NCBI GenBank assembly: GCA_964353405.1
Contig: CAYGWJ010000121.1
Span: 2,421-66,420, forward strand
Source of the DNA: an uncultured Anaerolineae bacterium
GTDB lineage: Bacteria; Chloroflexota; Anaerolineae; Fen-1058
DNA length: 64,000 bases
Direction of reading: 5' to 3'
The translations under genes were made by a program, and so were the position numbers. This document shows positions 5,261 to 33,796 of the stretch, one piece after another; the first letter of the stretch is position 1; every line of letters starts with the position of its first letter. The notes under the pieces were generated by a model. The model saw nothing but the letters and a program-made list of their open reading frames with translations, did not search any database and had not been told where the DNA came from.

Positions 5261-5326
5261 AGATTCCTCCTGACAAGTCACAGGTCGCAGGTCGCAGGTC
5301 ACATCGCCCGCGGCACACTCTACGGT

Positions 5327-7426: not shown

Positions 7427-7489
7427 CAGCCGGTATCCATCAGACGAATGACCAGGGACAAGGGGCCTATACTCGTCCGTCGTCTTGCG

Positions 7490-9933: not shown

Positions 9934-9940
9934 AGAGCCT

Positions 9941-10510
9941 CTACTTTGCCAGCGCCTTGTCCAGTTCGGCCACCAGTTCGGCTTCGCTCATCGGCGCGAT
10001 CTTGAACAATACAATGTTGCCCTGGCGATCCACCAAAAAAGATTCCGGCACGCCCTGGATGTGATACTTGGGCGAAATCTTGGTGCCCAAGTCAGGGCCA
10101 TTCAGGTACGTTACGCCAAACTTTTTGAGATAGTCGAGTGCTGCCGGTTCGGTGTCCACATAGTCAATACCCAGGAACACAACGCCCTTGTCGCGATATT
10201 GCCGCCAGACCTTTTCCAGTGCGGGCTGTTCTTCAGCACACGGCACGCACCAACTGGCCCAAAAGTTGATAAACACCACCTTGCCGCGCAAGACAGACAA
10301 CTTGACCTCCGGCTGGCCCGAACCGCCATCGTAGCCAGGATACACCTTGAGCGTAAAATCGGGCGCGATGCCGGACTTGGGCTGCGAGGCATTCCGCGCG
10401 CGCAGTTGGAGTGCCAGCACAATCACCAGGCCGACGACGCCCAACAACGCAACGGCGCGCCAGATCGAGCTGACTGTCTTTCTAGATGTAATCACGGCTG
10501 TTCCACTCAT
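9941..10510 (-). CDS. ccmG: Thiol:disulfide interchange protein CcmG/ResA/TlpA family (thioredoxin-like)
   Basis: WASWCVPCAEE active site, an N-terminal membrane anchor, and the TlpA-like fold sequence. Confidence 0.8.
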   Translation of the reverse strand: MSGTAVITSRKTVSSIWRAVALLGVVGLVIVLALQLRARNASQPKSGIAPDFTLKVYPGYDGGSGQPEVKLSVLRGKVVFINFWASWCVPCAEEQPALEKVWRQYRDKGVVFLGIDYVDTEPAALDYLKKFGVTYLNGPDLGTKISPKYHIQGVPESFLVDRQGNIVLFKIAPMSEAELVAELDKALAK

Positions 10511-10980
10511 CGCATTTCCTCAAGCTCGCGTTCCAATCGCTGGCGGTATTCATCCGCCGAATCGGGCACGGCCGGCGTTTCTACTTTCACCCTGGAAGGT
10601 TGAGCCGTCATGCGCCGCAAGACGACGACCAGAATCGCCACGCCCGCGATCAGCCCCACGATGGGCAAAATCCACACCAGCCCGGTAAAGCCTCCGCGCG
10701 GAGGCTCTTGCAGCACGCGGTCGCCATAGGTGGCCTGAAAGTAATTGATGATCTGCTGCGGCGTTTCACCGGTCGAGAGTTTTTGCCGGATCAGGTCACG
10801 CCACTGCGAGCACGCCTGCGTCTCGCACACGTCCAGCGGCACGTTCTCGCACACCGGGCAGTTGAGCTTTTTGGCGACCGCGTTCACCTGGTCATCCGTC
10901 ACCTGCCGGCCCTGCGCGGCGGCGATGCCGGCGACGAGCAAACTCGTCAACACGGCTGCCAGCAAAACGAACCCCCACAC
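10507..10980 (-). CDS. ccmH: Cytochrome c-type biogenesis protein CcmH (CycL/NrfF family)
   Basis: Signal peptide, an LNCPVCENVPLDVCETQAC motif corresponding to the CcmH LRCxxC thiol motif, a C-terminal TM helix and a tail reading ADEYRQRLERELEEM. Confidence 0.7.
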   Translation of the reverse strand: MWGFVLLAAVLTSLLVAGIAAAQGRQVTDDQVNAVAKKLNCPVCENVPLDVCETQACSQWRDLIRQKLSTGETPQQIINYFQATYGDRVLQEPPRGGFTGLVWILPIVGLIAGVAILVVVLRRMTAQPSRVKVETPAVPDSADEYRQRLERELEEMR

Positions 10981-11092
10981 TGTTTTGCGTGATGCGTGCC
11001 ATGTGCTGCGTGCTACGTGATGCGCGCTTCTCGTGTGACCTGGGCTCTGCGACTTGCATCCTGCCTCTTGCCTCTTGCATCTTGCTACCTCG

Positions 11093-13216
11093 TTATGCCT
11101 GTGCGGCTTTTAACGCTCTGCGCTCCACACTCAACGCTTTGCGCTCTTCGGCGGCATCCGGCCATGCGGCTACCAGCGTGCCCAGGATAAACACCAGCCC
11201 ACCCAGCCACAGCCAGTTGACCAACGGATTGATGAACACCTTGAACGTCGCCAGCGAACCGTCACTTTCCCAACCGCCCAACAGAACGTACAGGTCTTCT
11301 TTCATCGAGCTGAGCAGCGCGGGCGGCGTCATCCGCTCTCCGTTTGTGTATTGCTCCTGGTAGGGACGCATCGTCGTCAGGAGCTTGCCATTCTGCGAAA
11401 CCTCCACGCGCGCCGAGACAATGATCTTGTCCGCCTGGCCCGAAGGCACCAACTCTAACTGCCGAAACGTGATCTGGTACCCGCCGATGGACAGCGACCG
11501 GCCGACGGACAGCGCCTGTTGCGTCTCTTGCTGATACAGATGCGTCCCAAGGATGCCCACACCCATCAGTACGATGCCGGCATGCACCAGGTAACCTCCA
11601 TAGCGCCGCCGATTGCGCCCGATGAGATTCCACAGCGCAACCGGCCAGCTTTCACCCGTGGACTTGTGCCGCGCGCGCACGCCGCGCGCGTACTCTGCCA
11701 CGATGATCACGCCCGCATAGATCACCAGCGCAAAGCCCAACAAAGCCGCCCAGTTGTGAATGCCCAGCACATAGATGATGACCACGGCCACCAGCGTGGC
11801 CGGGCCGGGGAGGTAAAGCGCGCTCTTGCCCAGCGCCTGAGGCGAAGCCGCTCGCCACGAAATGAGCGGCGCAATCCCCATCAGCAGCACAAGCGGAACG
11901 AGCAATGGACCCACCACGCTCTGATAGTACGGCGCGCCCACCGTGATCTTGTTGTCGGTGAACAACTCGGAGAAAATCGGAAAGTACGTGCCGATGGCAA
12001 CCGCCAGATTGACGATGAGGAACAAGGCATTCTGCGCGATAAAGGCCGCCTCGCGCGAAAGCAGACTATCGAGCTTGTTCTCGCTCTTGAGATCGTCCAG
12101 CCGAGCCAGCAGCAAACCGATCGAGCCGACCAGCATCACGCCCGTGAAGGCGAGGAACGGCACGCCGATGGACGAGCGGGCGAACGAGTGCACCGACGAG
12201 ATGACACCCGTGCGGGTGATGAACGTGCCGAGGATAACCTGCGCGAAGGTGAGAATGATGAGGAACATGTTCCACGTCTTGAACATCCCGCGCTTTTCCT
12301 GGATCATCACCGAATGCAAAAACGCCGTGCCGGAAATCCACGGCATGAGCGCGGCATTTTCGACCGCGTCCCAGCCCCAATAGCCGCCCCAGCCCAACAC
12401 GTCATACGCCCAACGCATTCCCAGCAAAAGACCGATGCCGAGAAACAACCAGGCCATCAATGTCCAGCGGCGCGTGGTGCGAATCCAGGCATCATTCGTC
12501 TTGCCGGTGATGAGCGCCGCCATTGCAAACGAATACGGGATCGTGAATCCGACAAATCCGAGGTACAGGAAGGGCGGGTGCGCGATCATGCCAGGATGAC
12601 GCAAGAGTGGAGCAAGTCCTTGTCCATCCAGAGGCGTATACGGCAGTGAGCCAAGCGGCGCGAACAAAGTCTGTGCGATACCCGAAAAGCCGATGCTGCT
12701 CAAAGTGCTGAACAAGCCGCTGGCGCCCAAGACGGCGCCGACAATGTCGCCCGTTGGCGTTTGCCACAACTTGGCAAAGGGATTCGCAAACAACACGACC
12801 AACGCGATAAAGAACGCTTGCGTGATTTCGGCGACGGCGATGACGTAAGCCATCAGGTCGCGGTTCTTGTCCCACTTGCGCGCCATCACACCCGCGACGA
12901 ACATTGACATCAACCACGACCAGAACAACAGCGATCCATTTTGTCCGCCCCATAAAGCCGTGATCTTTAATATCGCGGGCGTAGAAATACTGGTCACATG
13001 CGCGGTGTACTCGAGGCGGAAATTATTGGTGAGATTAGAGTAGATGATCAACAGTGCGGACAGCGTCAACAATGGAGTGATCACCAGCACTGCGTTGCGT
13101 GCGCTCTTGACCCAATCTTCCCGATGGCTCCGCGCGCCGTGTATCGCCGCCGCGATGGCGTAAACGCTTGCCACCAAAGCCAACAAGAGCGAAATCAATC
13201 CAATGTCGGTTATCAT
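11093..13216 (-). CDS. ccmF: Cytochrome c haem lyase subunit CcmF
   Basis: 707 aa polytopic protein with the WWD motif WGGYWGWDAVENAALMPW and conserved His residues. Confidence 0.9.
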   Translation of the reverse strand: MITDIGLISLLLALVASVYAIAAAIHGARSHREDWVKSARNAVLVITPLLTLSALLIIYSNLTNNFRLEYTAHVTSISTPAILKITALWGGQNGSLLFWSWLMSMFVAGVMARKWDKNRDLMAYVIAVAEITQAFFIALVVLFANPFAKLWQTPTGDIVGAVLGASGLFSTLSSIGFSGIAQTLFAPLGSLPYTPLDGQGLAPLLRHPGMIAHPPFLYLGFVGFTIPYSFAMAALITGKTNDAWIRTTRRWTLMAWLFLGIGLLLGMRWAYDVLGWGGYWGWDAVENAALMPWISGTAFLHSVMIQEKRGMFKTWNMFLIILTFAQVILGTFITRTGVISSVHSFARSSIGVPFLAFTGVMLVGSIGLLLARLDDLKSENKLDSLLSREAAFIAQNALFLIVNLAVAIGTYFPIFSELFTDNKITVGAPYYQSVVGPLLVPLVLLMGIAPLISWRAASPQALGKSALYLPGPATLVAVVIIYVLGIHNWAALLGFALVIYAGVIIVAEYARGVRARHKSTGESWPVALWNLIGRNRRRYGGYLVHAGIVLMGVGILGTHLYQQETQQALSVGRSLSIGGYQITFRQLELVPSGQADKIIVSARVEVSQNGKLLTTMRPYQEQYTNGERMTPPALLSSMKEDLYVLLGGWESDGSLATFKVFINPLVNWLWLGGLVFILGTLVAAWPDAAEERKALSVERRALKAAQA

Positions 13217-13298
13217 TCACAGCCTCCACACAAACAAAAACGTAAAACGCCAAGAGCTGACCCTTGCGTTTTACGCTCCACATCGTACGGTTCTACAC

Positions 13299-13733
13299 TT
13301 ATTTGCTGGCCGGTGTCGGAGTGGGGAGTTGGTCTTCGTAACGAGTAGGACACTTGAGCAGCAAGTTGCTGGCGACAAAGGTCCCATCAGAGTTGAGCTT
13401 GCCCTCGGCAATCGCCTGGGCCTCGTGCTGCAACAGGTCCGGCTTGGGGCCGGTGTAGAGAATCTTGAGCGAGTCCACCTTGACCGTTGAGTTCAGCTCT
13501 TCGTGAGTGTCCACGATATTGAAGGACAGTCTGGAAGCCTGCGGGTTGTAGGCAATCGTGTCGCCCATCACAAAGCCGGATACGCGCAAGCTGCGGCCCG
13601 TCATGGCCTGCCCCTTGTCGCGTACCTCTTTGACTGTGAGGTAATACTGGGCCGAGCTGGAAATACTTGACACAATCAAATAGACTACCGCGGCTGCCAC
13701 CACAATTCCACCGATCCAAAACTTGGCGCGCAT
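13299..13733 (-). CDS. ccmE: Cytochrome c haem chaperone CcmE, Cys variant (CxxxY instead of HxxxY)
   Basis: The likely start is MRAKFW at 13733, preceded by an AGGAGG Shine-Dalgarno. The protein has a single N-terminal TM and an OB-fold sequence. The haem-binding motif reads LLLKCPTRYEDQ. Confidence 0.8.
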   Translation of the reverse strand: MRAKFWIGGIVVAAAVVYLIVSSISSSAQYYLTVKEVRDKGQAMTGRSLRVSGFVMGDTIAYNPQASRLSFNIVDTHEELNSTVKVDSLKILYTGPKPDLLQHEAQAIAEGKLNSDGTFVASNLLLKCPTRYEDQLPTPTPASK

Positions 13734-13862
13734 AAGCCTCCTGCTAATGTGACCCATCACTTGCCGCAAGTTGCGGAAATCACATTGACTATACCACATC
13801 GGCAAACCTGTGTCAAAATGCTATTGTGACGGTTGACATCCCGGCCAATCTGCCTAGTTCAA

Positions 13863-13975
13863 ATGGGGGAACACCCCCATAAACTACGCATAAACATGAT
13901 ATATGTCACATCTTGTCACGTCAAATGTCACTTGGAATAGTGAATTCCGGTGCTATAATGGGGGCATTCCCCCAT
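13863..13975. promoter_or_regulatory. Divergent control region with two palindromes and a sigma70-like promoter driving rightward transcription
   Basis: Palindrome ATGGGGGAACACCCCCAT at 13863-13880 and ATGGGGGCATTCCCCCAT at 13958-13975. The promoter is TTGGAA (13932-13937), a 16-nt spacer, then TATAAT (13954-13959). The second palindrome overlaps the -10 box. Three TGTCAC direct repeats lie at 13904, 13914 and 13926. Confidence 0.5.
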
Positions 13976-14241: not shown

Positions 14242-16536
14242 ATGAGACGCTATGCACTACCAGTGGGGATCGCCCTGTGCGTCGTCGGCCTGCTCGTCGT
14301 CCTGGCGGCCTGCGCCACGCCCACGCCCCCCCCTCCGCAAATCGTCAAAGAGACGGTCGTCGTCACCAAGGTCGTCGAGCCGACCAAGGCGCCGGCCGTC
14401 GCCGCAACGCTCGACCTGACAGCAAGCAAAAAGTCGCCCACGCTGCCATTCCTGGCTGACTGGCAGAAAGCGGGCCACTCTGATCCCACCGCAGAAGCCT
14501 TCAACCACTGGCCAACGGGTGGCGTGCCCACTGACTGCGCCAAGTGCCATACCTCTGAGGGATACCGCGAATTCGTCACCACCGGCAAGATCGAGAAGCC
14601 GATCCAGAACAGCGGCAGCTTGATCGACTGTGTCGCCTGCCACAACAGCGGCACGATGGATAAGACCAGTGTAAAGTTCCCCTCTGGCGCGACACTCAAG
14701 AACCTTGGCGCCGAAGCCCGCTGTATGGAATGCCACCAGGGCCGCGAGTCCACAGTCAGCGTGAACAACGTCATCTCCAACACCTTCAAGCTCAAGGATG
14801 CGGACGATGACACGGTTGTGAAACCGCTCGTGACAACGGACGCCGCTGGCAAAACCGTCACCACGACCTTCGGCTTCCGCAACATCCACTATTTCGCGGC
14901 TGCAGCCACGCAATATGGCACCCTGGCCAAGGGCGGTTACGAATACAAAGGCCAGTCGTATGACAGCAAGTTCCAACATCCTGAGCCGTATGACACCTGT
15001 GTGGGCTGCCACAACCAGCACACGTTGGAGTTGAAGCTGAAGGAATGCGCCACCTGCCATACTGGCGTCACCAAAGTCGAGGACATCGCCAAGATCCGCA
15101 TGAACGGCTCGCTAATGGACTATGACGGCGACGGCAATGCGAAGGAAGGGATCGCCGAGGAGTTGGCGGGCCTGCAGGAAAAACTGCTCGCCGCCATCCA
15201 GGCGTATGCCAAGGAAGTCGGCAAGGCCGACATCGCCTACAGCTCAACGGCTTACCCGTACTTTTTGGCGGACAAGAATGGCAACGGCAAGGCCGATGCT
15301 GATGAGACGGGAGTGTACACCGCCTGGACCCCGCGTCTGCTGAAGGCTACCTACAACTACCAGGTCGCCAGCAAGGATCCTGGCAAGCTGGCGCACAACG
15401 CCAAGTACGTCATCCAGTTGATGCACGATTCGATCGCGGATCTGAACACCAAGCTGGCCAAGCCGGTGGACATCGCGAAGGCAGTACGCAATGATGCCGG
15501 CCACTTTGATGGCACCGCTATGGCGTTCCGCGATTGGGATGCGGAGGGCGAGGTTCCGGCGGGCTGCGCCAAGTGCCACAGCGCCAAGGGCCTGCCTGAA
15601 TTCCTGGAGAGCGGCGGCACAGTCGCTGTGACGGCCGCCGGCTCGATCGTGACGACCGGCGTCGGCCCACAGGAAACCGCCAACGGTTTCGCCTGCACCA
15701 CCTGCCACAGCGACCTGACCAAGTTCACGGTGCGCCCGGTGGTGAATGTGCCGTTCCCCAGCGGCAAGAGCCTCACCTTCAGCAAGGAGAAGGATGACAA
15801 GGGCGCGCTCAAGCCAGTGGCTGCCAACCTGTGCCTGGAATGCCACCAGGGCCGCCAGTCCACGGCCGCCGTCAATACCAGGATCAAGGGCATTGACGAA
15901 GACAAAGTGGATGCCAAGGCCGCCTTCGCCAATGTGCACTACTTTGCCGCGGGCGCCACGCTCTTCGGCGATGCTGCGCAGGTCGCCTACCAGTATGATG
16001 GCAAAAAGTACGCCGGCCAGAATGCGCATGCGCCTGGCTTCGACACCTGCACCGGCTGCCACAGCACGCACGAACTCGGGGTCAAGATGGACAAGTGCGT
16101 GACCTGCCATGCCGGCGTCAAGACGCCCCAAGACATCCGCATGAACGCCAAGGATTTCGATGGCGACAAGGATGTGAAAGAAGGCATCTCGGCCGAGGTG
16201 ATGGCGCTAGAAGACAAGCTGTACGCGGCGATCATTGACTACAGCAAGACACTCACCAAGACAGCGATCGCCTACAACTCGGGCGCCAATCCGTACTTCT
16301 TCGTTGACACGAATGGCGATGGCAAGGCCGATGCGAAGGAGGCCGTGAGCGCCAATCGCTGGGCGGATTGGACGCCGCGCCTTCTCAAGGCCGCCTACAA
16401 CTACCAGTACGTCCAGAAGGATCCGGGCGCCTTTGCGCACAACCCCAAGTACGCCATCCAGATCCTCTACGATGCGCTGGAGGATCTCGGCAAGAAGGTC
16501 AAGGTGAACATGACGGGCCTGGCGCGGCCAGAGTAA
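14242..16536 (+). CDS. Decahaem c-type cytochrome lipoprotein with internal two-fold duplication
   Basis: Lipobox LAAC. Ten CXXCH motifs: CAKCH, CVACH, CMECH, CVGCH, CATCH, CAKCH, CTTCH, CLECH, CTGCH and CVTCH. The two halves align (...NGNGKADADETGVYTAWTPRLLKATYNYQ... against ...NGDGKADAKEAVSANRWADWTPRLLKAAYNYQ...). Confidence 0.85.
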   Translation: MRRYALPVGIALCVVGLLVVLAACATPTPPPPQIVKETVVVTKVVEPTKAPAVAATLDLTASKKSPTLPFLADWQKAGHSDPTAEAFNHWPTGGVPTDCAKCHTSEGYREFVTTGKIEKPIQNSGSLIDCVACHNSGTMDKTSVKFPSGATLKNLGAEARCMECHQGRESTVSVNNVISNTFKLKDADDDTVVKPLVTTDAAGKTVTTTFGFRNIHYFAAAATQYGTLAKGGYEYKGQSYDSKFQHPEPYDTCVGCHNQHTLELKLKECATCHTGVTKVEDIAKIRMNGSLMDYDGDGNAKEGIAEELAGLQEKLLAAIQAYAKEVGKADIAYSSTAYPYFLADKNGNGKADADETGVYTAWTPRLLKATYNYQVASKDPGKLAHNAKYVIQLMHDSIADLNTKLAKPVDIAKAVRNDAGHFDGTAMAFRDWDAEGEVPAGCAKCHSAKGLPEFLESGGTVAVTAAGSIVTTGVGPQETANGFACTTCHSDLTKFTVRPVVNVPFPSGKSLTFSKEKDDKGALKPVAANLCLECHQGRQSTAAVNTRIKGIDEDKVDAKAAFANVHYFAAGATLFGDAAQVAYQYDGKKYAGQNAHAPGFDTCTGCHSTHELGVKMDKCVTCHAGVKTPQDIRMNAKDFDGDKDVKEGISAEVMALEDKLYAAIIDYSKTLTKTAIAYNSGANPYFFVDTNGDGKADAKEAVSANRWADWTPRLLKAAYNYQYVQKDPGAFAHNPKYAIQILYDALEDLGKKVKVNMTGLARPE

Positions 16537-16848
16537 CTATCTGGAGTCTCGCTAGGGGGTAGACACCCGCTTTCCAGAGACACGGCTGCTCTCGCTCAAG
16601 GACCTCACCGGTAGCCTGGCGGTGGGCGCAACCGAGATGAAGTAAGTTCGTTTTTCGGGTGGTAAGGCAAGACGGGCCGGGGCTTTGTCCGGCCCGTCTT
16701 CCGGCAAGTCAGTCGTAATCGGGCGACAAGGTCGGCGCAGTGTCGCCTACAACATTCATCCCAGTTCGGATCACGCACTCATCTTGGGCCAGAGACTCTT
16801 GTTCTCTCTTTCACTCTGGCGAATCAAACCGAACGTAAGGAGACCAAC

Positions 16849-18000
16849 ATGATGGGACGCACTCGACGTCACATCCCAATCAGTCTGCTCGTCGCACTGA
16901 TGGCATTGGCTATCGCCGCACTCGTGTTCAGCACGGCCTCGGCCAGCGGGGCGAACGGCCCGGTCGCTTTGCCGACCATGCCGCCCACGCCGACGGGCGC
17001 GGATAACCAAAAGTGCCTGGCCTGCCACTCCAATCCGGCCCAGCAGATGAAGGCCGCCAACGGAGAGATCATCTCGCTCTACGTTGATCCAGACGCTCTC
17101 AAGAGCTCGGTGCATGGCGCCAAGAATGTGGCCTGTGTCCAGTGCCATAGCAACCTCTCAGGCTATCCGCACCCGGAGTACAAGCCAGCCGACCGGCGGC
17201 AAGTAACACTTGATCTCTACCAAGCCTGTAAACAATGCCACGGCGACAACTATCAAAAGACGTTGGACAGCGTTCACCAGAAAGCACTCGCTTCGGGCAA
17301 CCGCCTGGGCGCGACCTGCGCCGACTGCCACGGCGCGCACGACGTCCGCCCGCCCGATCAGCCGCGCTGGCGCATCGCTCTGACGTGCAGCAAGTGCCAC
17401 GGTGCGATTTTTAACCAGTACAAGGACAGCGTGCATGGCTCGGCACTGCAACAGGACAACCCCGATGTGCCCAGTTGCGTGGACTGTCACGGCGTGCACA
17501 ACATTCCTGACCCGATGACGCAGGCCTTCCGATTAAAGTCACCCACAGAGATGTGCGGCAAGTGCCACACCGATGCCAAACGCATGAGCAAATACAACAT
17601 CTCCACCGCCGTGCTCAATACCTACGTGGCCGACTTTCATGGCACCACCACCACGCTCTTCAAGAAGCAATCGCCTGACCAGGTTACAAACAAGCCCGTC
17701 TGTTTTGACTGCCACGGCGTGCACGAGATTGCCAACACCAAAGACCCCAAGGGCGGCCTGGCCATCAAGACCAACATGCTCAAAGCCTGCCAAAAATGCC
17801 ACCCGGACGCCACGACCGAAACCTTTGCCGCTTCGTGGACGAGCCATTACGAGCCTTCCCCGACCAGGTACCCGGTCGTCTACTATATTGACCTGTTCTA
17901 CAAGATTCTGATTCCGGCCGTGCTGGGCTTTATGATCTTGATGGTGCTCCTGGATGCTTTCTGGCGCATTCGCAATCGTTTTGCGGGGAAGGAGATCTAG
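16849..18000 (+). CDS. Nonahaem c-type cytochrome with a C-terminal membrane anchor
   Basis: Signal peptide. Nine CXXCH motifs (CLACH, CVQCH, CKQCH, CADCH, CSKCH, CVDCH, CGKCH, CFDCH, CQKCH). C-terminal TM helix ILIPAVLGFMILMVLL. Confidence 0.85.
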   Translation: MMGRTRRHIPISLLVALMALAIAALVFSTASASGANGPVALPTMPPTPTGADNQKCLACHSNPAQQMKAANGEIISLYVDPDALKSSVHGAKNVACVQCHSNLSGYPHPEYKPADRRQVTLDLYQACKQCHGDNYQKTLDSVHQKALASGNRLGATCADCHGAHDVRPPDQPRWRIALTCSKCHGAIFNQYKDSVHGSALQQDNPDVPSCVDCHGVHNIPDPMTQAFRLKSPTEMCGKCHTDAKRMSKYNISTAVLNTYVADFHGTTTTLFKKQSPDQVTNKPVCFDCHGVHEIANTKDPKGGLAIKTNMLKACQKCHPDATTETFAASWTSHYEPSPTRYPVVYYIDLFYKILIPAVLGFMILMVLLDAFWRIRNRFAGKEI

Positions 18001-18001
18001 C

Positions 18002-19525
18002 ATGGCCACCGAATCTCGAAAAATCTCGAGCCAAATCGCTCGTGGACAATATATCCGCTTTGATGTGCTGCAGCGAATAGAGCACATTCTTCTGCTGGTA
18101 TCGTTCACACTGTTGGGCATTACGGGCTTGATCCAGAAATTCGCGGCTTGGCCTGTCTCGGATGCGACCATCCAGTTCTTGGGCGGCATCGAAATGACGC
18201 GCCAGATACACCATATCAACGCCGCCATCATGATCATCCTGTCGGCCTACCACTTTGTGGAGGCGGGCTATCGGGTCTTTGTGCTGCGCGCGCGCATGAG
18301 CATGCTGCCCATGCTGAGCGACTTTACCGAGTGGTGGCAAGACACGACTTACAAGCTTGGGCTGACCAAGGCGCCGGCCAAGTTCGGGCGCTACAACTAT
18401 GGCGAAAAGATGGAATACTGGGCCTTGATCTGGGGCACAGTCGTCATGGGCATCACGGGCTTTATGCTGTGGAATCCCATCACCACGGCCAGGTTGGTTC
18501 CAGGCGAGTGGATTCCGGCCGCCAAAGCCGCGCACGGCGCCGAAGCGATCCTGGCGGTGCTCGCCATCATCATCTGGCACTTTTACAATGTGCACATCAA
18601 GATGTTCAACAAAGCCATGCTCACGGGCAAGCTGGATGAACACCAGATGGCGCACGAGCATGGCCGCGAGCTGGAAGCCATCGCTCGCGGCACGGCCGGC
18701 CGCAAGATTGACGCGCTGGTGCTGCGCCGCCGCCAGGTGATCTACTTTCCCCTCGCCACGGTGCTGGGAGTTGTGATGGCTTTCGGCATCTTTAAATTCC
18801 TCACCCTCGAGAATACTGCACCGATCAAGACCGTGCCGCCTGCGGTCAACGTCGCAGTACTAGTCACGGCAACGCCGCAACCCACGCCGACGCGCGCTCC
18901 GACCGCCGTGCCGACGACCGCTCCGACCCAAGCCCCATCGGCTGGCCAGGCACCGGCAACAGGCGGCGGCACCGCATTTGCAGATGTGCAAGCCATCCTC
19001 AAAGCCAAGTGCGGCGCCTGTCATGGCGATGCGGCGACCGCAGGTTTGAGCGTCAATACCTACGCCTCGCTGATGAAGGGAGGCGCGAGCGGAGCCGTCA
19101 TTGTCGCCAAAGATGCTGAAGGCAGCCCGTTGATCAAGAAGGTCACCGGCGCCCACCCCGGTCAATTCTCAGCGGACGAGCTGGCCGCTATCAAAGCCTG
19201 GATTGCAGCGGGCGCAGCCGAAGGTGGAGCACCCGCTGCTGCGCCCGCTCCGGCAGCCGGCGGCAAAGTGACCTTTGTCAAAGACATCCAGCCCATCTTT
19301 ACCGCCAAGTGCGCGGCCTGTCACGGCGTCATGGGCGGATTGACCTTGACCTCGTTTGAAAGTGTGATGCACGGGGGCACGTCCGGCCCGGCCGTTACAC
19401 CCAAGGACCCCGCCAAGAGTTCCATCATCACGAAACAAATCGCAGGCGGCCACCCCGGCCAACTCACAGCGGAGGAAATCGATTTGGTTCGCAAGTGGAT
19501 TGCGGACGGCGCAGCCGAGCAGTAA
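18002..19525 (+). CDS. Dihaem cytochrome b (FdnI/hydrogenase b-type family) fused to two monohaem cytochrome c (PSCyt-like) domains
   Basis: The N-terminus RFDVLQRIEHILLLVSFTLLGITGL followed by His-bearing helices matches b-type cytochrome PF01292. A PT-rich linker follows. Two repeats, FADVQAILKAKCGACHG... and FVKDIQPIFTAKCAACHG..., each end in ...GAHPGQ. The ATG at 18002 abuts the upstream stop. Confidence 0.8.
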   Translation: MATESRKISSQIARGQYIRFDVLQRIEHILLLVSFTLLGITGLIQKFAAWPVSDATIQFLGGIEMTRQIHHINAAIMIILSAYHFVEAGYRVFVLRARMSMLPMLSDFTEWWQDTTYKLGLTKAPAKFGRYNYGEKMEYWALIWGTVVMGITGFMLWNPITTARLVPGEWIPAAKAAHGAEAILAVLAIIIWHFYNVHIKMFNKAMLTGKLDEHQMAHEHGRELEAIARGTAGRKIDALVLRRRQVIYFPLATVLGVVMAFGIFKFLTLENTAPIKTVPPAVNVAVLVTATPQPTPTRAPTAVPTTAPTQAPSAGQAPATGGGTAFADVQAILKAKCGACHGDAATAGLSVNTYASLMKGGASGAVIVAKDAEGSPLIKKVTGAHPGQFSADELAAIKAWIAAGAAEGGAPAAAPAPAAGGKVTFVKDIQPIFTAKCAACHGVMGGLTLTSFESVMHGGTSGPAVTPKDPAKSSIITKQIAGGHPGQLTAEEIDLVRKWIADGAAEQ

Positions 19526-19649
19526 TTCTTTGTGATGGGTTTCAGCCGATCCCAGGCAACGCAGCCCTACACGACGTTGAGGGGCCGCTAGGACAAAGAC
19601 CGGGGGTTTTGAGGTATGGGCAACTGATTGCCCAACAAAGGAGATACGC

Positions 19650-21731
19650 ATGTCAGATGATCCCAAGTCAAACGTTCCACATTCATCCTCTGAGGCCACC
19701 CCAGTCGCCGGCGCGGTGACAAACAAGCCTCGCTCTTTTGGGTCGAGGTTCTGGTCCAGGGTCAGCACCAACAAATGGCTGATGACCGGCACGATCGTCG
19801 TCACGCTGCTGATCCTGTTTGGGCTTTTCTTGGGCGGGATAGCTGTTTTTGACTGGAGTGAATCCACGGCGTTTTGTTCACTCTGTCACGTGATGAAGCC
19901 CGAGTACACGGCGTATCAAAGCTCGCCGCACTCTCGCGTGGAGTGCGGCACCTGCCACGTCGGCCCAGGCCCCACTGCCGCCGTCAAGGCCAAACTGGCC
20001 AACGTCCGATACCTGTGGGTGGCTCCCACCGGCTGGCATGAAAGGCCCATCCCTTCTCCCATCACCAGCCTACGCCCGGTCGAAGTGGTTTGCGAACAAT
20101 GCCACTGGCCGGAAAAGTTTTATCAGGATCGCCTGGCGACCGTCCCGCACTATGCAGAGGATGAGAACAACCGCCTGACGCAAATCAAGTTGCTCCTCAA
20201 GACTGGCGGCGGAACGCAAAACGCTGGCCAGGGACGCGGCATCCACTGGCACATCGCCAATCCCGTTTACTATATCGCGACCGACAAGCAGCGGCAGGAG
20301 ATAGACTGGGTTCAGGCTACTTTTGGCGGCAAGACAACCGAGTACCTCGCGACAGACAGCAAGCTGACGCCGGAGCAAATCGCCAAAGCCGAAAAGCGCA
20401 AGATGGACTGCGTTGACTGCCACAACCGCGCGACGCACGTCTTCCAGCGGCCAGGCGAGGCGCTCGACGCCGCCCTGGCAGCGGGCACCATCCCTGCCAA
20501 CTTGCCCTTCATCAAGCGCGAAGGGACCCAAGTACTGGAAAAGACCTACACGACCGAAGACCAAGCCGCCCAAGCGATCGCCGCTGTGGAAGACTTTTAT
20601 CGGACACAGTACCCCATGGTCTATAACAACCGCAAGGCGGATGTCCAGAAAGCCGTCGCCGGATTGCAGGCCATTTTTGACAGCACCCAGTTCCCCTTTA
20701 TGCGAGTGACCTGGGAGTCGCATCCGACGAACATCGGCCACAAGGATTTTGCAGGCTGCTTCCGCTGCCACGATGGCAAGCACCTGAGCCGAGACAACCA
20801 GGCCATCCGGCTCGAGTGCAATATCTGCCACAGCATCCCGCAGGTCATCACCCCGGACAAGACCACTGCGGCGCTGCCTCTGACCATCGGCATCGAACCG
20901 GATTCGCACAGAAGCACGACCTGGCTTGCGGAGCATCGTACCCGTTTCGATGCCACCTGCGCCAATTGCCACACAACCGGCAATGCCGGGGGCAATGACA
21001 ACAGTAGTTTTTGCAGCAATAGCGCCTGTCATGGCGCGAACTGGAAATTTGTCGGGCTGAACGCGCCCGGGGTGCGCCAACCGGGTCAACCTGCTCAACC
21101 TGCCCAACCGGCTCAGGGCAAGCCGCCTGCGATTCCGCATGATTTGGCCGGGCGCGACAACTGCCTGACGTGCCACAATCCTGATGGCGGCATCAAGCCC
21201 GCGCCCAAGGATCATGCCGGGCGCACGATTGACACATGCCAGGCATGTCACAAACCGACGACGGCTGCCCGTCCAACCGCAGCACCGACGGCGGCCGCCC
21301 CGACCACTGCGCCTTCAGAGGCGCCGACCAAGACAGCGGCCACGGCAACACCCGCCGCGCCGGCTGGAGGCGGCGCGCCGCCTGCCATTCCGCATGATTT
21401 GGCCGGGCGCGACAACTGCCTGACGTGTCACAATCCCGAGGGCGGCCTCAAGCCCGCACCGAAGGATCACGCCGGGCGCGCGAACGACACGTGCCTGGCG
21501 TGCCACAAGCCGTCAACGACCGCGCCTGCAGCTGCACCCACCAAGGCGGTAACTGCCACACCGGCTGCACCGTCAGGCGGCGAAGCGCCGCCGGCCATTC
21601 CGCATGACCTGGCCGGGCGCGACAACTGCCTGACGTGTCACAATCCCGAGGGCGGCCTCAAGCCCGCGCCCAAGGATCACGCCGGGCGTACGAACGATGC
21701 TTGCCAGGCCTGCCACAAGCAAAAGTCGTGA
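19650..21731 (+). CDS. NapC/NirT-family membrane multihaem cytochrome ending in three paired-CXXCH repeats
   Basis: N-terminal TM, then CSLCHVM, CGTCHVG, CEQCHW and CVDCHN, which match the NapC/NirT/NrfH quinol dehydrogenase fold. Further on are CFRCH, CNICH, CANCH and the variant CSNSACH. The protein ends in a three-fold repeat of PAIPHDLAGRDNCLTCHNPEGGLKPAPKDHAGRTNDxCxACHK separated by Ala/Pro/Thr linkers, about 14 haems in total. Confidence 0.8.
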   Translation: MSDDPKSNVPHSSSEATPVAGAVTNKPRSFGSRFWSRVSTNKWLMTGTIVVTLLILFGLFLGGIAVFDWSESTAFCSLCHVMKPEYTAYQSSPHSRVECGTCHVGPGPTAAVKAKLANVRYLWVAPTGWHERPIPSPITSLRPVEVVCEQCHWPEKFYQDRLATVPHYAEDENNRLTQIKLLLKTGGGTQNAGQGRGIHWHIANPVYYIATDKQRQEIDWVQATFGGKTTEYLATDSKLTPEQIAKAEKRKMDCVDCHNRATHVFQRPGEALDAALAAGTIPANLPFIKREGTQVLEKTYTTEDQAAQAIAAVEDFYRTQYPMVYNNRKADVQKAVAGLQAIFDSTQFPFMRVTWESHPTNIGHKDFAGCFRCHDGKHLSRDNQAIRLECNICHSIPQVITPDKTTAALPLTIGIEPDSHRSTTWLAEHRTRFDATCANCHTTGNAGGNDNSSFCSNSACHGANWKFVGLNAPGVRQPGQPAQPAQPAQGKPPAIPHDLAGRDNCLTCHNPDGGIKPAPKDHAGRTIDTCQACHKPTTAARPTAAPTAAAPTTAPSEAPTKTAATATPAAPAGGGAPPAIPHDLAGRDNCLTCHNPEGGLKPAPKDHAGRANDTCLACHKPSTTAPAAAPTKAVTATPAAPSGGEAPPAIPHDLAGRDNCLTCHNPEGGLKPAPKDHAGRTNDACQACHKQKS
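21118..21731 (+). repeat. Three near-identical tandem DNA repeats (~240 bp unit) encoding paired-CXXCH dihaem modules
   Basis: The run ccgcatgatttggccgggcgcgacaactgcctgacgtg(c/t)cacaatcc... occurs three times, starting at ~21136, ~21379 and ~21598. The repeats generate spurious alternate-frame ORFs. Confidence 0.85.
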
Positions 21732-21781: not shown

Positions 21782-23743
21782 ATGAGCACTACCGCCCTGG
21801 GATACATCTACTTTTTCTACGGCCTCGCGTTTTTTGCGATGGGGCTGGCGGTGGTGCTGGAAGCGGGCCGGACCAGCGAGTTGCGGTTCGCGCACTCGAT
21901 GCCGTGGCTGGCGGCCTTTGGCCTGACCCATGGCTTGCACGAGTGGTTTGAAATGTTTGAGGTGATGGGGCAATTGCCCCCTGGCCTGCCGCTGGGAGCA
22001 ATTCACCTCATCCTCCTGGTTGTCTCGTTTGCCTGCCTGGCAGCGTTCGGAATCAGCCTGGGCCGGACCGAGAGCGCGGCGCCGTTGGGCGCCATGTGGC
22101 GAACGCTGGCGCTCATCGGGTTCAGCCTGGGCGGCATGATCGTGTTGCGGCTCTGGCTGCCGCAGTCCGATTGGTGGGGAGCCGCCAGCGTCTGGGCGCG
22201 TTACAGCCTGGGGATCGTCGGCGCCATCGTTACCAGTTGGTCGCTCATTTCTCAAGGGCAAGTCTTTGCCAGGCTGGGCATGGCGCATTTTGGGCGCGAC
22301 CTGATCTGGGCAGCGCTGGCCTTTGCCCTGTATGGCATCGTCGGCCAGATGTTTGTGTCCAAGAGCGCGCTGCCGCCTTCGAACTTTATCAACTCTGATT
22401 TGTTCCTGCGGCTGTTCGGTGCGCCTGTTCAGTTGTTCCGAGGCGCGATCGCGATGGTGCTGGCCGTCACCATCATCCGCGCGCTGCGCGTGTTCGAGAT
22501 CGAACGCACACAGCGACTGCGCGCAGCGGAGCTGACGGCCCAGGAAGCTGAGCGGCGCGTCCAACAGGAAACGGCGCACCTGAACCGCCAATTGCAGGAA
22601 GCGGTCAACGAGCTATCCATCCTGTTTGAAATGTCGCGCATCCTGGCGGCCACGCTGGACTGGCAGGCTGTGCTTCAACAAGCCGTCGTCAAGGTCGTTG
22701 ACCTGCTGCCCGCTCGCGCGGCGATGATCCTGCTGGAAACGGATCCGCCGGGAAGCTGCGCCGCGAGCACAGGCTTTTGCCGCGCAGAGTTGGCTGGCGC
22801 CGCCCAGAGCATAGGTCGGGCCGTCATCACCGCCAACGCCGATAACAACGAATTCGCTGTTCCGCCCGAGATGCGCGTGCTGGCTCCGATGATGGCCGTG
22901 CCTTTGCACCTTTCGGGCAAGCGCGGTCTCATCGGCAGCCTGGTCATTTGCGTGAGCGACGTGCACATCTTTGAACCCAAGCGGTCGCTATTGCTCACGC
23001 TGGGCCGTGAGCTGGCCATCGCCATCGAAAACGCCCGGCTTTACCAGCAAGTCCAAGAGCGCGAGATGGTGCGCGGCGAACTGCTGCGGCGTTCGGTGCA
23101 GGTTCAGGAAGAAGAGCGCAAGCGCATCGCCCGCGAGCTGCACGACGGCATCGGCCAGATCTTTACCGCGCTGGCGCTGGGGCTTTCGGGTGTAGAAGAA
23201 ACCATGCCGCGTGACCCGGCGCTGGCGCGCAAGCAAATCGGCAATCTCAAAGACTTGGCCGTTCGCGCCATCTCTGAGCTGCGTCAACTGGTGGCCGATC
23301 TGCGGCCCGCGCAGTTGGACGACCTGGGCCTGGCGCCCGCGCTCCACTGGCTGACCGACGAGTGGCGCGACCGGCTTCACATGGATGTGCGCGTTCAAAT
23401 TCTAGGCCAGCGCCGTCGCCTGTCGTCGGAAATGGAAACCGTGCTGTTTCGCATCACGCAAGAAGCGTTGACCAACGTCGCCAAGCACGCCAACGCGCAG
23501 CGCACCGCCGTCAAGCTGGCTTTTGGCGATGACCAGGTCGAGCTGGTCATCGAGGATAATGGCATCGGCATGACGCCGGAACAAATGTACCGCCGCCAGG
23601 TTCGCCATCAAGGCTGGGGACTGGCTGGCATCCAGGAACGCGCCGCTCTCGTCGGCGGCACATTCGATATTGACTCGGCGCCGGGGCGAGGCACCCGGTT
23701 GACCGTCCACATCCCACTTGGTGGCGAGGAGGCCGTTGCATGA
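21782..23743 (+). CDS. Polytopic sensor histidine kinase with GAF, HisKA_3 and HATPase_c domains (NarX/LiaS-type)
   Basis: The ATG at 21782 (MSTTALGYIYFFYG) opens a ~7-TM N-terminal sensor domain. A GAF-like region and the HisKA_3 H-box (RIARELHDGIGQ) follow. G-box: DNGIGM...GWGLAGIQERAALVGG. The ORF-track start at 21635 is a repeat artefact. Confidence 0.85.
   Translation: MSTTALGYIYFFYGLAFFAMGLAVVLEAGRTSELRFAHSMPWLAAFGLTHGLHEWFEMFEVMGQLPPGLPLGAIHLILLVVSFACLAAFGISLGRTESAAPLGAMWRTLALIGFSLGGMIVLRLWLPQSDWWGAASVWARYSLGIVGAIVTSWSLISQGQVFARLGMAHFGRDLIWAALAFALYGIVGQMFVSKSALPPSNFINSDLFLRLFGAPVQLFRGAIAMVLAVTIIRALRVFEIERTQRLRAAELTAQEAERRVQQETAHLNRQLQEAVNELSILFEMSRILAATLDWQAVLQQAVVKVVDLLPARAAMILLETDPPGSCAASTGFCRAELAGAAQSIGRAVITANADNNEFAVPPEMRVLAPMMAVPLHLSGKRGLIGSLVICVSDVHIFEPKRSLLLTLGRELAIAIENARLYQQVQEREMVRGELLRRSVQVQEEERKRIARELHDGIGQIFTALALGLSGVEETMPRDPALARKQIGNLKDLAVRAISELRQLVADLRPAQLDDLGLAPALHWLTDEWRDRLHMDVRVQILGQRRRLSSEMETVLFRITQEALTNVAKHANAQRTAVKLAFGDDQVELVIEDNGIGMTPEQMYRRQVRHQGWGLAGIQERAALVGGTFDIDSAPGRGTRLTVHIPLGGEEAVA
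22844..22861. promoter_or_regulatory. 18-bp element AACAACGAATTCGCTGTT, copy 2, inside the kinase coding sequence
   Basis: Exact match to copy 3. It encodes NNEFAV in the GAF region. Confidence 0.35.
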
Positions 23744-24411
23744 CGATCAAGATTGTGCTCGTGGACGATCACGAGATCGTGCGGGCGGGCCTGAGGATGC
23801 TGCTCAGCTCGCACTCGGACATTGAGATCATCGGCGAGGCTGAAAACGGCCAGCAGGCCTTGCAGCTCTGCCAAAAGAACCCGCCCGATGTCGTCATTAT
23901 GGACATCACCATGCCGGGCCTCAGTGGGCTTGAAGTCACGCGCCAGATCAAGCAGCAATGCCCCAACACGGCCGTGCTGGCGCTCACCATCCACGAAGGC
24001 GAGCAATACTTTTTCGAGATGCTCAACGCGGGCGCTTCCGGTTACGTCCCTAAACGCGCCGCGCCCACCGACCTGGTGAATGCCATCCACGCTGTGTATT
24101 CCGGCGAAGTGTACCTGCATCCAAGCGTCGCCAAGGCGCTCGTCAACGATTACATCCAACGTGTTCAGATGGGCTGGGAGCGCGCCAGCTACGACGGACT
24201 GACCGACCGCGAGCAGCAGGTCCTCAAGATGATTGCCGAAGGCATGATGAACAAAGAGATCGCCGAAAAGCTCTCGATCAGCGTGCGGACGGTGGAGCGG
24301 CATCGAGAGAACATTATGGCCAAGCTCAACCTGCACACGCGGGCCGAGCTGGTGCGCTATGCGGTAGACAAGGGACTGATTGACATCAGCAACAAGCCGC
24401 CTTCAGAGTAG
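23740..24411 (+). CDS. NarL/FixJ-family response regulator (REC plus LuxR-type HTH)
   Basis: REC domain sequence IVLVDDHEIVRAGLRMLL...VVIMDITMPGLSG...LALTIHEGEQ. LuxR HTH LTDREQQVLKMIAEGMMNKEIAEKLSISVRTVERHRENIMAKL. The gene overlaps the kinase stop. Confidence 0.9.
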   Translation: MTIKIVLVDDHEIVRAGLRMLLSSHSDIEIIGEAENGQQALQLCQKNPPDVVIMDITMPGLSGLEVTRQIKQQCPNTAVLALTIHEGEQYFFEMLNAGASGYVPKRAAPTDLVNAIHAVYSGEVYLHPSVAKALVNDYIQRVQMGWERASYDGLTDREQQVLKMIAEGMMNKEIAEKLSISVRTVERHRENIMAKLNLHTRAELVRYAVDKGLIDISNKPPSE

Positions 24412-24806: not shown

Positions 24807-25404
24807 ATGATGATCCGAGTCGTTCTGGTGGATGACCAGGAGATTGTGCGCGCCGGGCTGCGCCTGCTGCTCCAATCTCAGACAGACATGGACATCGTAG
24901 GCGAGGCCGGCGATGGCGCCGAGGCGCTCGCACTTTGCCGCCAGGTTTCTCCCCACGTTGTGATCACCACCATCGAACTGCCGGGCCTCAATGGTTTCGA
25001 GCTCGCGCGCAAGCTCAAAGCGCAAAGACCCACAGCACTTTTTCGAGATGATCAGTGCGGGCGCATCCGGCTACCTCCCCAAGCGCACTGCCACCGCTGA
25101 CCTGGTGACCGCCATCCGCACCGTCCATGCGGGTCAAATGTACATACATCCCACGGGTTATCACCAGCGCACCTACGCAAGCCATGAACGCCCCCGCCCC
25201 AACGACCTGGAGCCGCATGAACAGCTCGTCCTCGTCATGATTGCCCAAGGAGCGCAAAACAAGCAAATCGCGCTGCGGCTTGGGGTCAATGTGAGAACCG
25301 TGGCGCGCTATCGAGCGAATATCGAGAACAAGCTCAACCTGCACAGCCGGGCCGACCTGGTGCGCTATGCGGTGGACAAGGGCCTGGTGAGCGCGGCCCC
25401 CTAG
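24807..25404 (+). pseudogene. NarL-family response regulator paralog disrupted by an internal deletion and frameshift
   Basis: ORFs 24807..25100 and 24991..25404 lie in two different frames, and both align to the upstream regulator. The segment equivalent to NTAVLALTIHEGE is missing (about 41 nt; the conserved Thr of the REC domain is lost). The C-terminal LuxR HTH is intact. Confidence 0.55.
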
Positions 25405-25566
25405 AGCGCTGGCGACCAGGCAAAAATGCATCGTCCTGCTCGCACTCCCTCATTGCGCATGGGTTTCCCCCCCCCACACACCCCCTCATTCATTGACGGT
25501 TGCCCCACTTGAATCGTGCGTGACTACCCTCTAGGGTGATCAGAATATTGGGGATATGGGCGCAAC

Positions 25567-25597
25567 AAGTTGGGTGGCCTGCCCAATTGACCTGTCA
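25567..25597 (+). promoter_or_regulatory. 31-bp promoter-like element, copy 2, upstream of the octahaem cytochrome operon
   Basis: AAGTTGGG-N5-TGCCCAATTGACCTGTCA. It is 26/31 identical to copy 1, with identical spacing. Confidence 0.45.
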
Positions 25598-25663
25598 TGG
25601 GGCAATGTGATACCTTTGTGTCAGCAGAACCAGGTGAATGGCCTACACACAAAGGAGAAGAAA

Positions 25664-26446
25664 ATGTCCACTACACGCGTTGTCTTTGCCGTCTTTCTCA
25701 TGACCGTTGTGACGGCGTTCGTGGTGAGTGTGTGCGCGGCAGGAGTGGCGTATGCCGCTGGCCCTGAGCCACAGCAACAACCAGACTGCGCCACTTGCCA
25801 CTCGGAAGTCGCCAAGACGTGGGGAGGGGGCAAACATGCTATCAAAGGTATTGCCTGCACGGCATGTCACCAGCCCGGCCCCAATGCCCACCCTGGCAGC
25901 CCGATAGGTGTTGACAAGTCGGCCGCGTTTTGCAGCACTTGCCATTCCGCCGCGGGCACAGAGTGGCAAACGAGCGGTCATGGCAAGGCCAACGTCGCGT
26001 GCACTTCGTGCCACGACATGCACTCAGCCTCGCTCAAGTTCAAGGCGCCGACTGACCTGTGCGCAAGCTGCCACAAGGAGCGCGAAGACCAAAGCAACAT
26101 GCCGATGGACAGCTCGACCAACGCGTGCATCAACTGCCATATGCACAGCACGGCTTCCGGCACAACCGCCACCAACCCCACTCCCTCCAACCACTCTTTC
26201 GTCATGGGAGCGGACGCCTGCCAGCGCTGCCACAAGGATAATGTCCACACAGCGCATCAAATCATTTCTACGGTTTTGCCCCAGCCTGGCGCCGACAAGC
26301 CCGTCCAACAACTTGTGCCCACCGCAACGCTTGCCGCCGCGAGTGCCGCATCGAACGGCGTCTCGGCCTGGCCCAACATCATGGGCGGCGTGATCGGAGG
26401 GCTTTTGCTTGGCTTTATTTCGGCTGTCGTCGTGGTAAGGAGATAG
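25664..26446 (+). CDS. Octahaem c-type cytochrome with a C-terminal TM anchor (NrfB/QrcA-like electron-transfer subunit)
   Basis: AAGGAG Shine-Dalgarno before the ATG at 25664. Signal peptide. CXXCH motifs: CATCH, CTACH, CSTCH, CTSCH, CASCH, CINCH and CQRCH. C-terminal TM helix IMGGVIGGLLLGFISAVVVV. Confidence 0.8.
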   Translation: MSTTRVVFAVFLMTVVTAFVVSVCAAGVAYAAGPEPQQQPDCATCHSEVAKTWGGGKHAIKGIACTACHQPGPNAHPGSPIGVDKSAAFCSTCHSAAGTEWQTSGHGKANVACTSCHDMHSASLKFKAPTDLCASCHKEREDQSNMPMDSSTNACINCHMHSTASGTTATNPTPSNHSFVMGADACQRCHKDNVHTAHQIISTVLPQPGADKPVQQLVPTATLAAASAASNGVSAWPNIMGGVIGGLLLGFISAVVVVRR

Positions 26447-26448
26447 GA

Positions 26449-27240: not shown

Positions 27241-27260
27241 GACATTCGACGCCAAAGGAT

Positions 27261-29040: not shown

Positions 29041-29061
29041 CAACACTTTTATTGCCCTCCA

Positions 29062-29093
29062 GGCCCGAAGAGTCACTTTGGGCCTTTTTTTTT
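29062..29093 (+). terminator. Rho-independent terminator
   Basis: Stem GGCCCGAAG / CTTTGGGCC (one G-U pair) with loop AGTCA, followed by nine T residues. Confidence 0.75.
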
Positions 29094-32713: not shown

Positions 32714-32718
32714 AGACC

Positions 32719-33795: not shown

Positions 33796-33796
33796 C

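Follow-up and report, generated by a model that had tools for sequence, protein, structure and literature searches.

The DNA analysed here is a 64,000-nucleotide stretch from an uncultured Anaerolineae bacterium (contig CAYGWJ010000121.1), called the window below, and the subject of the analysis is a group of four consecutive cytochrome genes, G1 to G4, on its plus strand. All of the evidence was gathered in silico. In a window of about 60% G+C, the four open reading frames are G1, a decahaem lipoprotein (14242-16536); G2, a nonahaem cytochrome c resembling the haem wires MtrA, DmsE and NrfB (16849-18000); G3, an FdnI/HydC-type dihaem cytochrome b with two monohaem c domains (17954/18002-19525); and G4, a membrane-anchored 14-haem cytochrome (19650-21731). 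Each is preceded by a GGAG-type ribosome-binding site at normal spacing. Motif counting found 10 CXXCH in G1, 9 in G2, 2 in G3 and 13 in G4, which has one CX4CH besides, so that the cluster holds 35 c-type haem sites in addition to the two b haems of G3. From its own cysteine and histidine frequencies, a protein of the size and composition of G1 would be expected to contain about 0.02 CXXCH by chance. The same count found no CXXCK in any of the four proteins, and no molybdopterin subunit or other recognised catalytic enzyme is encoded within the four-gene cluster. An initial annotation of this DNA, made from the letters alone, had given these gene and haem numbers, a duplication inside G1, a fusion of cytochrome b with c domains in G3, a NapC/NirT-type N-terminus on G4 and the lack of a catalytic subunit, and the present analysis agrees with it on every one of these points.

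The start of G3 is most likely at 18002, one nucleotide past the stop codon of G2, rather than at 17954, because its homologues are 507 amino acids long and begin at that ATG. The gene arrangement is not an assembly artefact, because a JGI metagenome contig from a different sample (L089), with about 96% DNA identity to the window, has the same order of G1, G2, G3, G4 and a downstream kinase. A promoter-like site on the plus strand at 13932-13959, in the intergenic region between G1 and the divergent gene ccmE, consists of TTGGAA, a 16-nucleotide spacer and TG-TATAAT; it came from a consensus scan and is weak when taken alone.

G1 encodes a protein of 764 amino acids with a lipobox (LAAC, Cys24), and the lipobox is found in 17 of the 18 proteins of the G1 cluster, the window copy counted. 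After the lipobox comes a flexible, Pro/Thr-rich linker of about 40 residues, for which AlphaFold2 gives a pLDDT below 50, and then two pentahaem modules at approximately residues 66-416 and 417-764. This remainder of the protein was modelled confidently, with a mean pLDDT of 85 and a pTM of 0.82. The two halves are 41% identical to each other (E 2e-85). All ten haem motifs and ten further histidines are kept in 50 homologues, and these ten non-motif histidines, five in each half, would permit bis-His ligation of all the haems. In each half an extra invariant histidine, H79 or H421, lies upstream of the first motif.

The predicted fold of G1 is nearest to the Thermincola surface reductase OcwA and to NrfA, and in the model it shares the haem-module fold of NrfA, OcwA and OmhA. 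By sequence, G1 matched no solved structure, and a Foldseek search with G1 gave no significant result. An hhalign comparison of the G1 family with E. coli NrfA covered 58 columns at a probability of 52%, and at that weak level the catalytic CXXCK of NrfA falls on the first haem motif in each half of G1. Judged by its predicted structure, G1 is a new tandem form within the NrfA/OcwA group, and one without a sequence match to the solved members. Membership in the MtrC/OmcA/UndA group was considered as well and was ruled out on the predicted fold, which does not have the two pentahaem domains alternating with two beta-barrel domains that mark that group; a marginal match to PF22113 is no sign of membership, because no MtrC, OmcA or UndA is present among the matches of G1.

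The family around G1 comprises 357 clusters (50% identity, E <= 1e-30) and includes proteins of about 360 amino acids that match one half only, as well as longer forms, some of which, in other phyla, bear Big_2/Ig-like domains of the surface type. One such relative, 1268 amino acids long and with Big_2/Ig-like domains, was seen in locus L088 (9001-20888), where it adjoins a 24-haem lipoprotein and an 11-haem cytochrome. The same group of genes has a secreted 480-amino-acid protein without a Pfam match, with ResB/CcsA-type biogenesis genes close by, and has the appearance of a diderm porin-cytochrome cluster.

G2 and G3 behave as a pair. G2 has 383 amino acids, with a signal-like N-terminal helix and a C-terminal transmembrane helix that would anchor it in the membrane. 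Nine CXXCH motifs are invariant in the G2 family, as are nine further histidines that would serve as distal ligands, and 79 of 87 G2 orthologues keep nine haems. The family profile matches chain 6r2q_A (E 6.5e-8), which we take to be MtrA, since the fold library gives 6r2q as the solved Mtr complex, while the PDB name file says 'Cystathionine beta-synthase'. It also matches an unnamed cytochrome of 278 amino acids, 28pb.

G3 has five predicted transmembrane helices within approximately residues 1-270, and after the fifth helix two c domains (approximately residues 322-403 and 422-507) sit on Pro/Thr/Ala-rich linkers. The membrane part matches PF01292 and the c domains match PSCyt1, a monohaem domain. 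In a comparison of G3 with E. coli FdnI (1kqf_C, E 8e-13), the FdnI haem-b ligands H18, H57, H155 and H169 all align with invariant histidines of the G3 family. G3 scored 48.3 bits against the FdnI equivalog model TIGR01583, for which the cut-off is 115.85 bits, and no molybdopterin or FdnH-type genes lie beside it. The c domains match FoxE (5mab, E 4e-8). An invariant histidine in a GGHPG motif occupies the position usual for the methionine ligand in these domains, from which we infer that their haems may be of low potential. Across 79 non-redundant related loci, G2 adjoins G3 in 76, typically with a 4-nucleotide overlap. The number of tethered c domains on G3 varies from 0 to 5 in these loci, mostly being one, and reaches six in database homologues. 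Natural fusions of G2 with G3 were looked for among long G3 homologues, and in each the extra length was made up of four to six tethered c domains, with no multihaem N-terminus.

G4, of 693 amino acids, combines a putative NrfH/ImcH-like quinol-dehydrogenase module at the N-terminus, a conserved core with the CX4CH motif (CSNSACH, residue 455) and a tail of repeats. Its single transmembrane helix (residues 49-67) is followed directly by the first haem motif, CSLCH at residue 76, in the context CSLCHVM; CXXCHXM is the signature of the NrfH quinol site (bioRxiv 10.1101/2023.05.03.539133). G4 scored 34.7 bits against PF03264, above the cut-off of 24.1, and matched NrfH itself (2j7a_C, E 1.1e-5). 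With 14 haems and 44.9 bits against the 134.2 bits required by TIGR03153, it does not qualify as an NrfH orthologue, and no NrfA partner was found in the window cluster or among its conserved neighbours. In 44 of 45 G4 orthologues the motif next to the helix is CX3CH and six CX2CH follow; the series as a whole is almost always CX3CH (then x-M), six CX2CH, CX4CH and one monohaem tail domain. The window G4 and its closest relative, in locus L007, have CX2CH in the first position.

Where most orthologues have the single monohaem domain, the window G4 carries three 43-residue dihaem mini-domains (nucleotides 21126-21254, 21381-21509 and 21591-21719, within 21126-21719 on the plus strand), separated by Pro/Thr/Ala-rich linkers and 85-88% identical to one another as DNA. 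Tandem Repeats Finder, run on 14-29 kb, reported no repeats; these copies surfaced through a protein pattern and BLAST. The triple dihaem tail is common only to the closest relatives of the window G4, and the number of tail units per G4 across related loci runs from 1 to 3. In the near-identical strain (L089, 6408-7039, compared with window 21122-21720) G4 is 11 residues longer, 704 as against 693 amino acids, which suggests a length polymorphism in the linker and repeat region.

Relatives of G3 were sought in one genome per species, which gave at least 556 stretches of DNA, of which the best 80 loci were listed. Chloroflexota-lineage names (Chloroflexota/Chloroflexi, Anaerolineae with its orders and families, 'Chloroflexia' and Chloroflexus) are carried by 78 of these best 80, and the other two are labelled Actinomycetota. 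The best match among the loci listed is a metagenome-assembled genome of Thermoflexales, at 70-80% protein identity, and the window would accordingly most likely belong in Anaerolineae close to Thermoflexales. Neighbourhoods were counted on the 79 non-redundant loci, with co-occurrence taken from the 39 that have full 10-kb flanks. In these 39, G4 lies near G2-G3 in 24, G1 lies within 10 kb in 17, and all of G1-G4 occur together in 11. G1 is also found alone in some genomes. A kinase with a regulator is near G2-G3 in 26 of the 39 loci, a module of multihaem cytochrome, NrfC-like and NrfD-like genes (haem-NrfC-NrfD) in 21-22, and the cytochrome c maturation (ccm) genes for CcmE and CcmF in 20-21. 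The exact colinear order G1-G2-G3-G4 was seen in the window and in near-identical L089 only, and in none of the 79 related loci.

Recurrent neighbours were also sought without bias, through all-against-all clustering of every open reading frame of 83 loci. The families that recurred were the ccm genes, the kinase and regulator, haem-NrfC-NrfD, a Rieske/cytochrome b complex, a zinc-ribbon membrane protein and multihaem lipoproteins with collagen repeats. The initial annotation had held that a consistently adjacent catalytic partner would point to a conventional function in the nitrogen cycle; in the 83 loci no molybdopterin enzyme, NrfA, hydroxylamine oxidoreductase (HAO), nitrite enzyme or other catalytic family was recurrent. 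It had also called the composite unusual for its lineage, which the survey contradicts: the same parts co-occur around the relatives of G3, and it is the exact order alone that the 79 loci lack. The cluster is thus not unusual in its lineage, and together with the ccm genes, the NarL-type two-component system and haem-NrfC-NrfD it is a widespread respiratory island. No published description of this gene set was found in the literature searched.

The Rieske/cytochrome b complex, which has multi-c subunits, is present in 18-20 related loci, directly beside G2-G3 or between the genes of the set, and its subunits also bear tethered PSCyt1-type domains. For example, L003 (11588-14969) and L004 (12063-15355) have an insertion between G3 and G4 that encodes a Rieske protein, a split cytochrome b and a subunit of the multihaem or multi-c kind. 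The relatives with the insertion include one whose G3 is 85% identical to that of the window, which itself has no such complex there. The lipoproteins with collagen repeats are exemplified by L056 (1803-3050) and L074 (7114-8151), with 8 and 6 CXXCH respectively and N-terminal collagen-like Gly-Pro-X repeats such as GPAGPEGSIGPVGPAGPEGPQGPPG. Collagen-like repeats on a haem lipoprotein are an unusual combination, and the repeats could act as a rigid spacer. The two Actinomycetota-labelled genomes (L039 and L073) have G1, G2, G3 and an inverted G4 beside ccmF and ccmH, and these clusters reflect either horizontal transfer or mis-binned Chloroflexota contigs.

Around the four genes, the window holds several of the same neighbours. 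Immediately downstream of G4 on the plus strand are a sensor histidine kinase (21782-23743), with a multi-pass membrane N-terminus and GAF, HisKA_3 and HATPase domains, and a NarL/LuxR-type response regulator (23740-24411) whose start overlaps the kinase stop. The two-component system reported earlier at this place is real. A second NarL-type regulator, about 54% identical to the first, follows at 24807-25404 (plus strand). It is disrupted by a frameshift near 25034, lacks 12 residues and has threonine in place of the phospho-acceptor aspartate (ITTIELPG), and is probably a pseudogene or the product of a sequencing error. The haem-NrfC-NrfD module, which the earlier finding had not included, occupies 25556-28520 on the plus strand. 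Its genes encode a heptahaem cytochrome c predicted to be anchored at both ends (25556-26446), a TAT-exported NrfC/DsrO-like 4Fe-4S protein (26449-27240; 216.8 bits against the DsrO model, cut-off 200) and an NrfD/QrcD-like, putatively quinone-interacting membrane subunit (27261-28520, start estimated). No catalytic partner accompanies the module, and the best terminator-like hairpin of the region, at 29061-29085, lies 3' of it.

On the other side, divergent from G1, a complete system I for cytochrome c maturation is encoded on the minus strand at 4251-13805. The operon comprises a DsbD-like protein, CcmC, CcmB, CcmA, a 647-amino-acid dihaem class I cytochrome c (7490-9433), a zinc-ribbon protein (9397-9933), CcmG, CcmH, CcmF and CcmE. 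Farther downstream, at 31265-40004 on the plus strand, the window encodes glycolate-oxidase-like GlcD/E/F proteins and a molybdoenzyme of the xanthine-dehydrogenase/CO-dehydrogenase family with FAD, 2Fe-2S and MoCo subunits; from their domain make-up these enzymes were taken as cytoplasmic and unrelated to the cytochrome cluster.

The initial annotation had likened the cluster to the Cbc and ImcH systems of Geobacter. Likeness to CbcL and ImcH was judged from published descriptions of their architecture and motifs. CbcL of Geobacter sulfurreducens (GSU0274) is a menaquinol oxidoreductase for low-potential extracellular acceptors (PMC6295460). It has nine c-type haem motifs in its extracytoplasmic part and a HydC/FdnI-like dihaem b part, with the c part first (PMC6295460), and G2 and G3 supply the same parts in the same order. 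The differences are that CbcL is one polypeptide whereas the window uses two translationally coupled genes, that G2 has a C-terminal membrane helix of its own, and that G3 adds a fifth helix and tethered monohaem c domains, two of them here. By analogy, the G2-G3 pair resembles a CbcL divided over two genes. A BLAST survey from 2018 detected no homologue of CbcL among Chloroflexi (PMC6295460), a result that would make sense if the b and c parts are encoded separately there.

ImcH is described as having an atypical CX3CH beside its membrane domain and then six CX2CH (PMC6295460), and this is the pattern of the G4 orthologues. A single-helix ImcH homologue has been reported in Anaerolinea thermophila, and single-helix homologues are known outside Geobacter (PMC6295460). 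The window G4 has one hydrophobic helix where Geobacter ImcH has three at its N-terminus, its first motif is CX2CH, and it carries 14 haems compared with four in NrfH and CymA or seven in ImcH. The resemblance to NrfH lies in the helix followed directly by haem 1 with CH-x-M and in the PF03264 and NrfH matches. Compared with the NapC/NirT family, G4 adds a conserved CX4CH haem and three tethered dihaem repeats, and no NrfA-type partner is encoded. The earlier analogy held for architecture and motifs, namely the CbcL parts list of G2 and G3 and the ImcH pattern of the G4 orthologues, and failed for the single polypeptide of CbcL and the three helices of ImcH.

The remaining genes also resemble known systems in part. 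OcwA of Thermincola potens and OmhA of Carboxydothermus ferrireducens are surface multihaem reductases of monoderm bacteria. The predicted fold of G1 is nearest to the former, but G1 consists of two pentahaem modules with 10 haems in place of a c554-like and NrfA-like fusion with 9 or 11, it is a lipoprotein, and sequence similarity to either is undetectable. G2, besides its profile match to MtrA, partly matches the DmsE-family and NrfB models; it differs in having nine haems where MtrA and DmsE are decahaem, in being anchored by a C-terminal helix rather than placed in an outer-membrane porin, and in scoring far under the family cut-offs (54.5 against 192 bits). The module at 25556-28520 is like NrfBCD, QrcABCD and alternative complex III in combining a multihaem c, a TAT-exported 4Fe-4S and an NrfD-like subunit. 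It lacks a molybdopterin-like QrcB/ActB and an NrfA, and scored 269 bits against the 570 of the QrcD-type model.

Altogether, we think it rather probable that G1-G4 form an electron-transfer network that couples the quinone pool to acceptors, and possibly donors, outside the cytoplasmic membrane. The cluster offers two putative quinone-interacting entry modules, G3 with its G2 wire and the N-terminus of G4, with a third, haem-NrfC-NrfD, downstream. All of its cytochromes are predicted to be membrane-anchored, and the two monohaem domains of G3 and the three dihaem domains of G4 all sit on Pro/Thr/Ala-rich linkers. Menaquinol would be oxidised at G3, at G4 or at both, and electrons would pass through the haem wire of G2 and the tethered domains to G1 and from there to an acceptor beyond the membrane. 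The tethered domains would take the place that soluble carriers have in the periplasm of diderm bacteria, as would fit the presumably monoderm envelope of Chloroflexota, which would lack a closed periplasm. G1 would be the distal or terminal reductase for an acceptor that is extracellular or at the level of the cell wall, such as Fe(III)/Mn(IV) minerals, humics or a partner cell. The kinase and regulator next to the cluster may control its expression, and haem-NrfC-NrfD may serve as the third point of quinol entry.

Extracellular electron transfer by the cluster is plausible by analogy. Ardenticatena, a cultured and presumably monoderm member of the same phylum, carries out bidirectional (anodic and cathodic) extracellular electron transfer with electrodes (PMC5808234), and Anaerolineae genomes are rich in multihaem cytochromes and suspected of extracellular electron transfer (bioRxiv 10.1101/2021.08.23.457424). 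The surface-type domains on G1 relatives in other phyla also speak for it. Several observations weigh against an outward network that ends at G1. G1 is no obligate partner, because it is near G2-G3 in just the 17 loci counted above and alone in some genomes. The Rieske/cytochrome b complex that neighbours the genes in about a quarter of related loci points to ties with conventional respiratory chains. In the FdnGHI redox loop, quinone is reduced on the cytoplasmic side of the membrane, the usual site for FdnI-type cytochromes b, so electrons could also flow inward through G3. Finally, the fold of G1 is common to the catalytic NrfA and OcwA enzymes, and its first motifs align, if weakly, with CXXCK.

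The last of these observations leads to an alternative in which G1 is a catalytic enzyme of the NrfA/OcwA type that reduces nitrite, hydroxylamine, nitric oxide, sulfite or a similar soluble substrate, fed by the NrfH-like G4, by G2-G3 or by both. We regard this as unlikely. The NrfH-type N-terminus of G4 fits such a role, as does the alignment of the first haem motif with the NrfA CXXCK, although that match is marginal and is joined by no sequence match to a PDB entry. The absence of CXXCK, the motif of the penta-coordinated catalytic haem in most NrfA enzymes, speaks against catalysis, and H79 and H421, upstream of the first motifs, could close the sixth coordination site; we know of no counterpart of these histidines in NrfA. 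The initial annotation had counted the missing CXXCK as a sign that the cluster has no reductase. The count is right, but it does not exclude catalysis in a protein with an NrfA/OcwA fold, because OcwA and OmhA have penta-coordinated CXXCH haems with a non-bonding conserved histidine and reduce nitrite in vitro (PMC9250108). Given this haem ligation, the five extra histidines in each half of G1 would also fit four ligands and one catalytic histidine. In related loci, however, G1 is often unlinked from G4, its supposed electron donor, and OcwA, to which it is structurally nearest, reduces iron oxides in its physiological role (PMC6703420).

The association with Rieske/cytochrome b complexes could mean instead that the genes belong to an internal respiratory branch, with G2-G3 and G4 as alternative quinol:cytochrome c oxidoreductases, similar to complex III or alternative complex III, whose tethered c domains feed terminal oxidases or membrane reductases. 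The PSCyt1-type domains shared with the subunits of those complexes, and the position of the cluster next to the ccm genes and a dihaem class I cytochrome c, would suit this, and many Anaerolineae encode terminal oxidases for aerobic respiration (PMC11748557). We find it quite improbable nonetheless: about 35 mostly His/His-type haems are far beyond what is needed to reach an oxidase, the histidine of GGHPG at the methionine position of the G3 c domains suggests low-potential haems, and it is hard to see what a decahaem lipoprotein of OcwA-like fold would do in such a branch. Reversed flow would make the cluster a system for electron uptake, in which extracellular Fe(II), a cathode or a partner cell delivers electrons through G1 and G2 to the b haems of G3 and on to menaquinone at the cytoplasmic face, conserving energy in the style of the FdnI loop. 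The FdnI topology and haem ligands of G3 would allow this, its c domains are similar to the Fe(II)-oxidising FoxE of Rhodobacter ferrooxidans, and Ardenticatena is cathodic as well as anodic (PMC5808234). The likeness to FoxE, however, extends no further than the domain fold, and modules of the NrfH/ImcH type, such as that of G4, are known to oxidise quinol (bioRxiv 10.1101/2023.05.03.539133). We hold uptake as the role of the cluster to be very doubtful. At neutral pH, Fe(II) is too oxidising a donor for menaquinone unless energy is supplied.

For these reasons we prefer the network that connects the quinone pool with the outside of the membrane. A more specific form of it is possible, and we put it forward tentatively: the cluster may be the core of a porin-independent conduit that is specific to Chloroflexota. 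Unlike the Mtr and Pcc systems, such a conduit would use carriers tied to the membrane, would span the cell envelope with small mono- or dihaem domains on Pro/Thr/Ala-rich linkers, arranged as 'beads on a string' in numbers that differ from species to species, and would end in a tandem NrfA-fold decahaem lipoprotein.

Anaerolineae are among the most abundant bacteria of sediments, aquifers, digesters and activated sludge, and they have repeatedly been suspected of extracellular electron transfer. We know of no molecular pathway for that process in the phylum. The conserved and widespread gene set described here provides concrete candidates for one: a split CbcL-like pair, an ImcH/NrfH-like cytochrome, a decahaem lipoprotein with a predicted OcwA fold, a haem-NrfCD module and a two-component system. 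The set also hints at a way in which tethered haem domains could stand in for soluble carriers in a cell that lacks a closed periplasm. In surveys that seek the fused form, Chloroflexi at present count as having no CbcL (PMC6295460). If the proposed role is true, it would add to the designs known for electron conduits and allow better prediction of metal cycling and syntrophy from genes. If the porin-independent conduit in particular is true, electron exchange between Anaerolineae and minerals or partner cells would run mainly through the split CbcL-like pair, and G1 would represent a family of tandem NrfA-fold decahaem lipoproteins that had not been described before.

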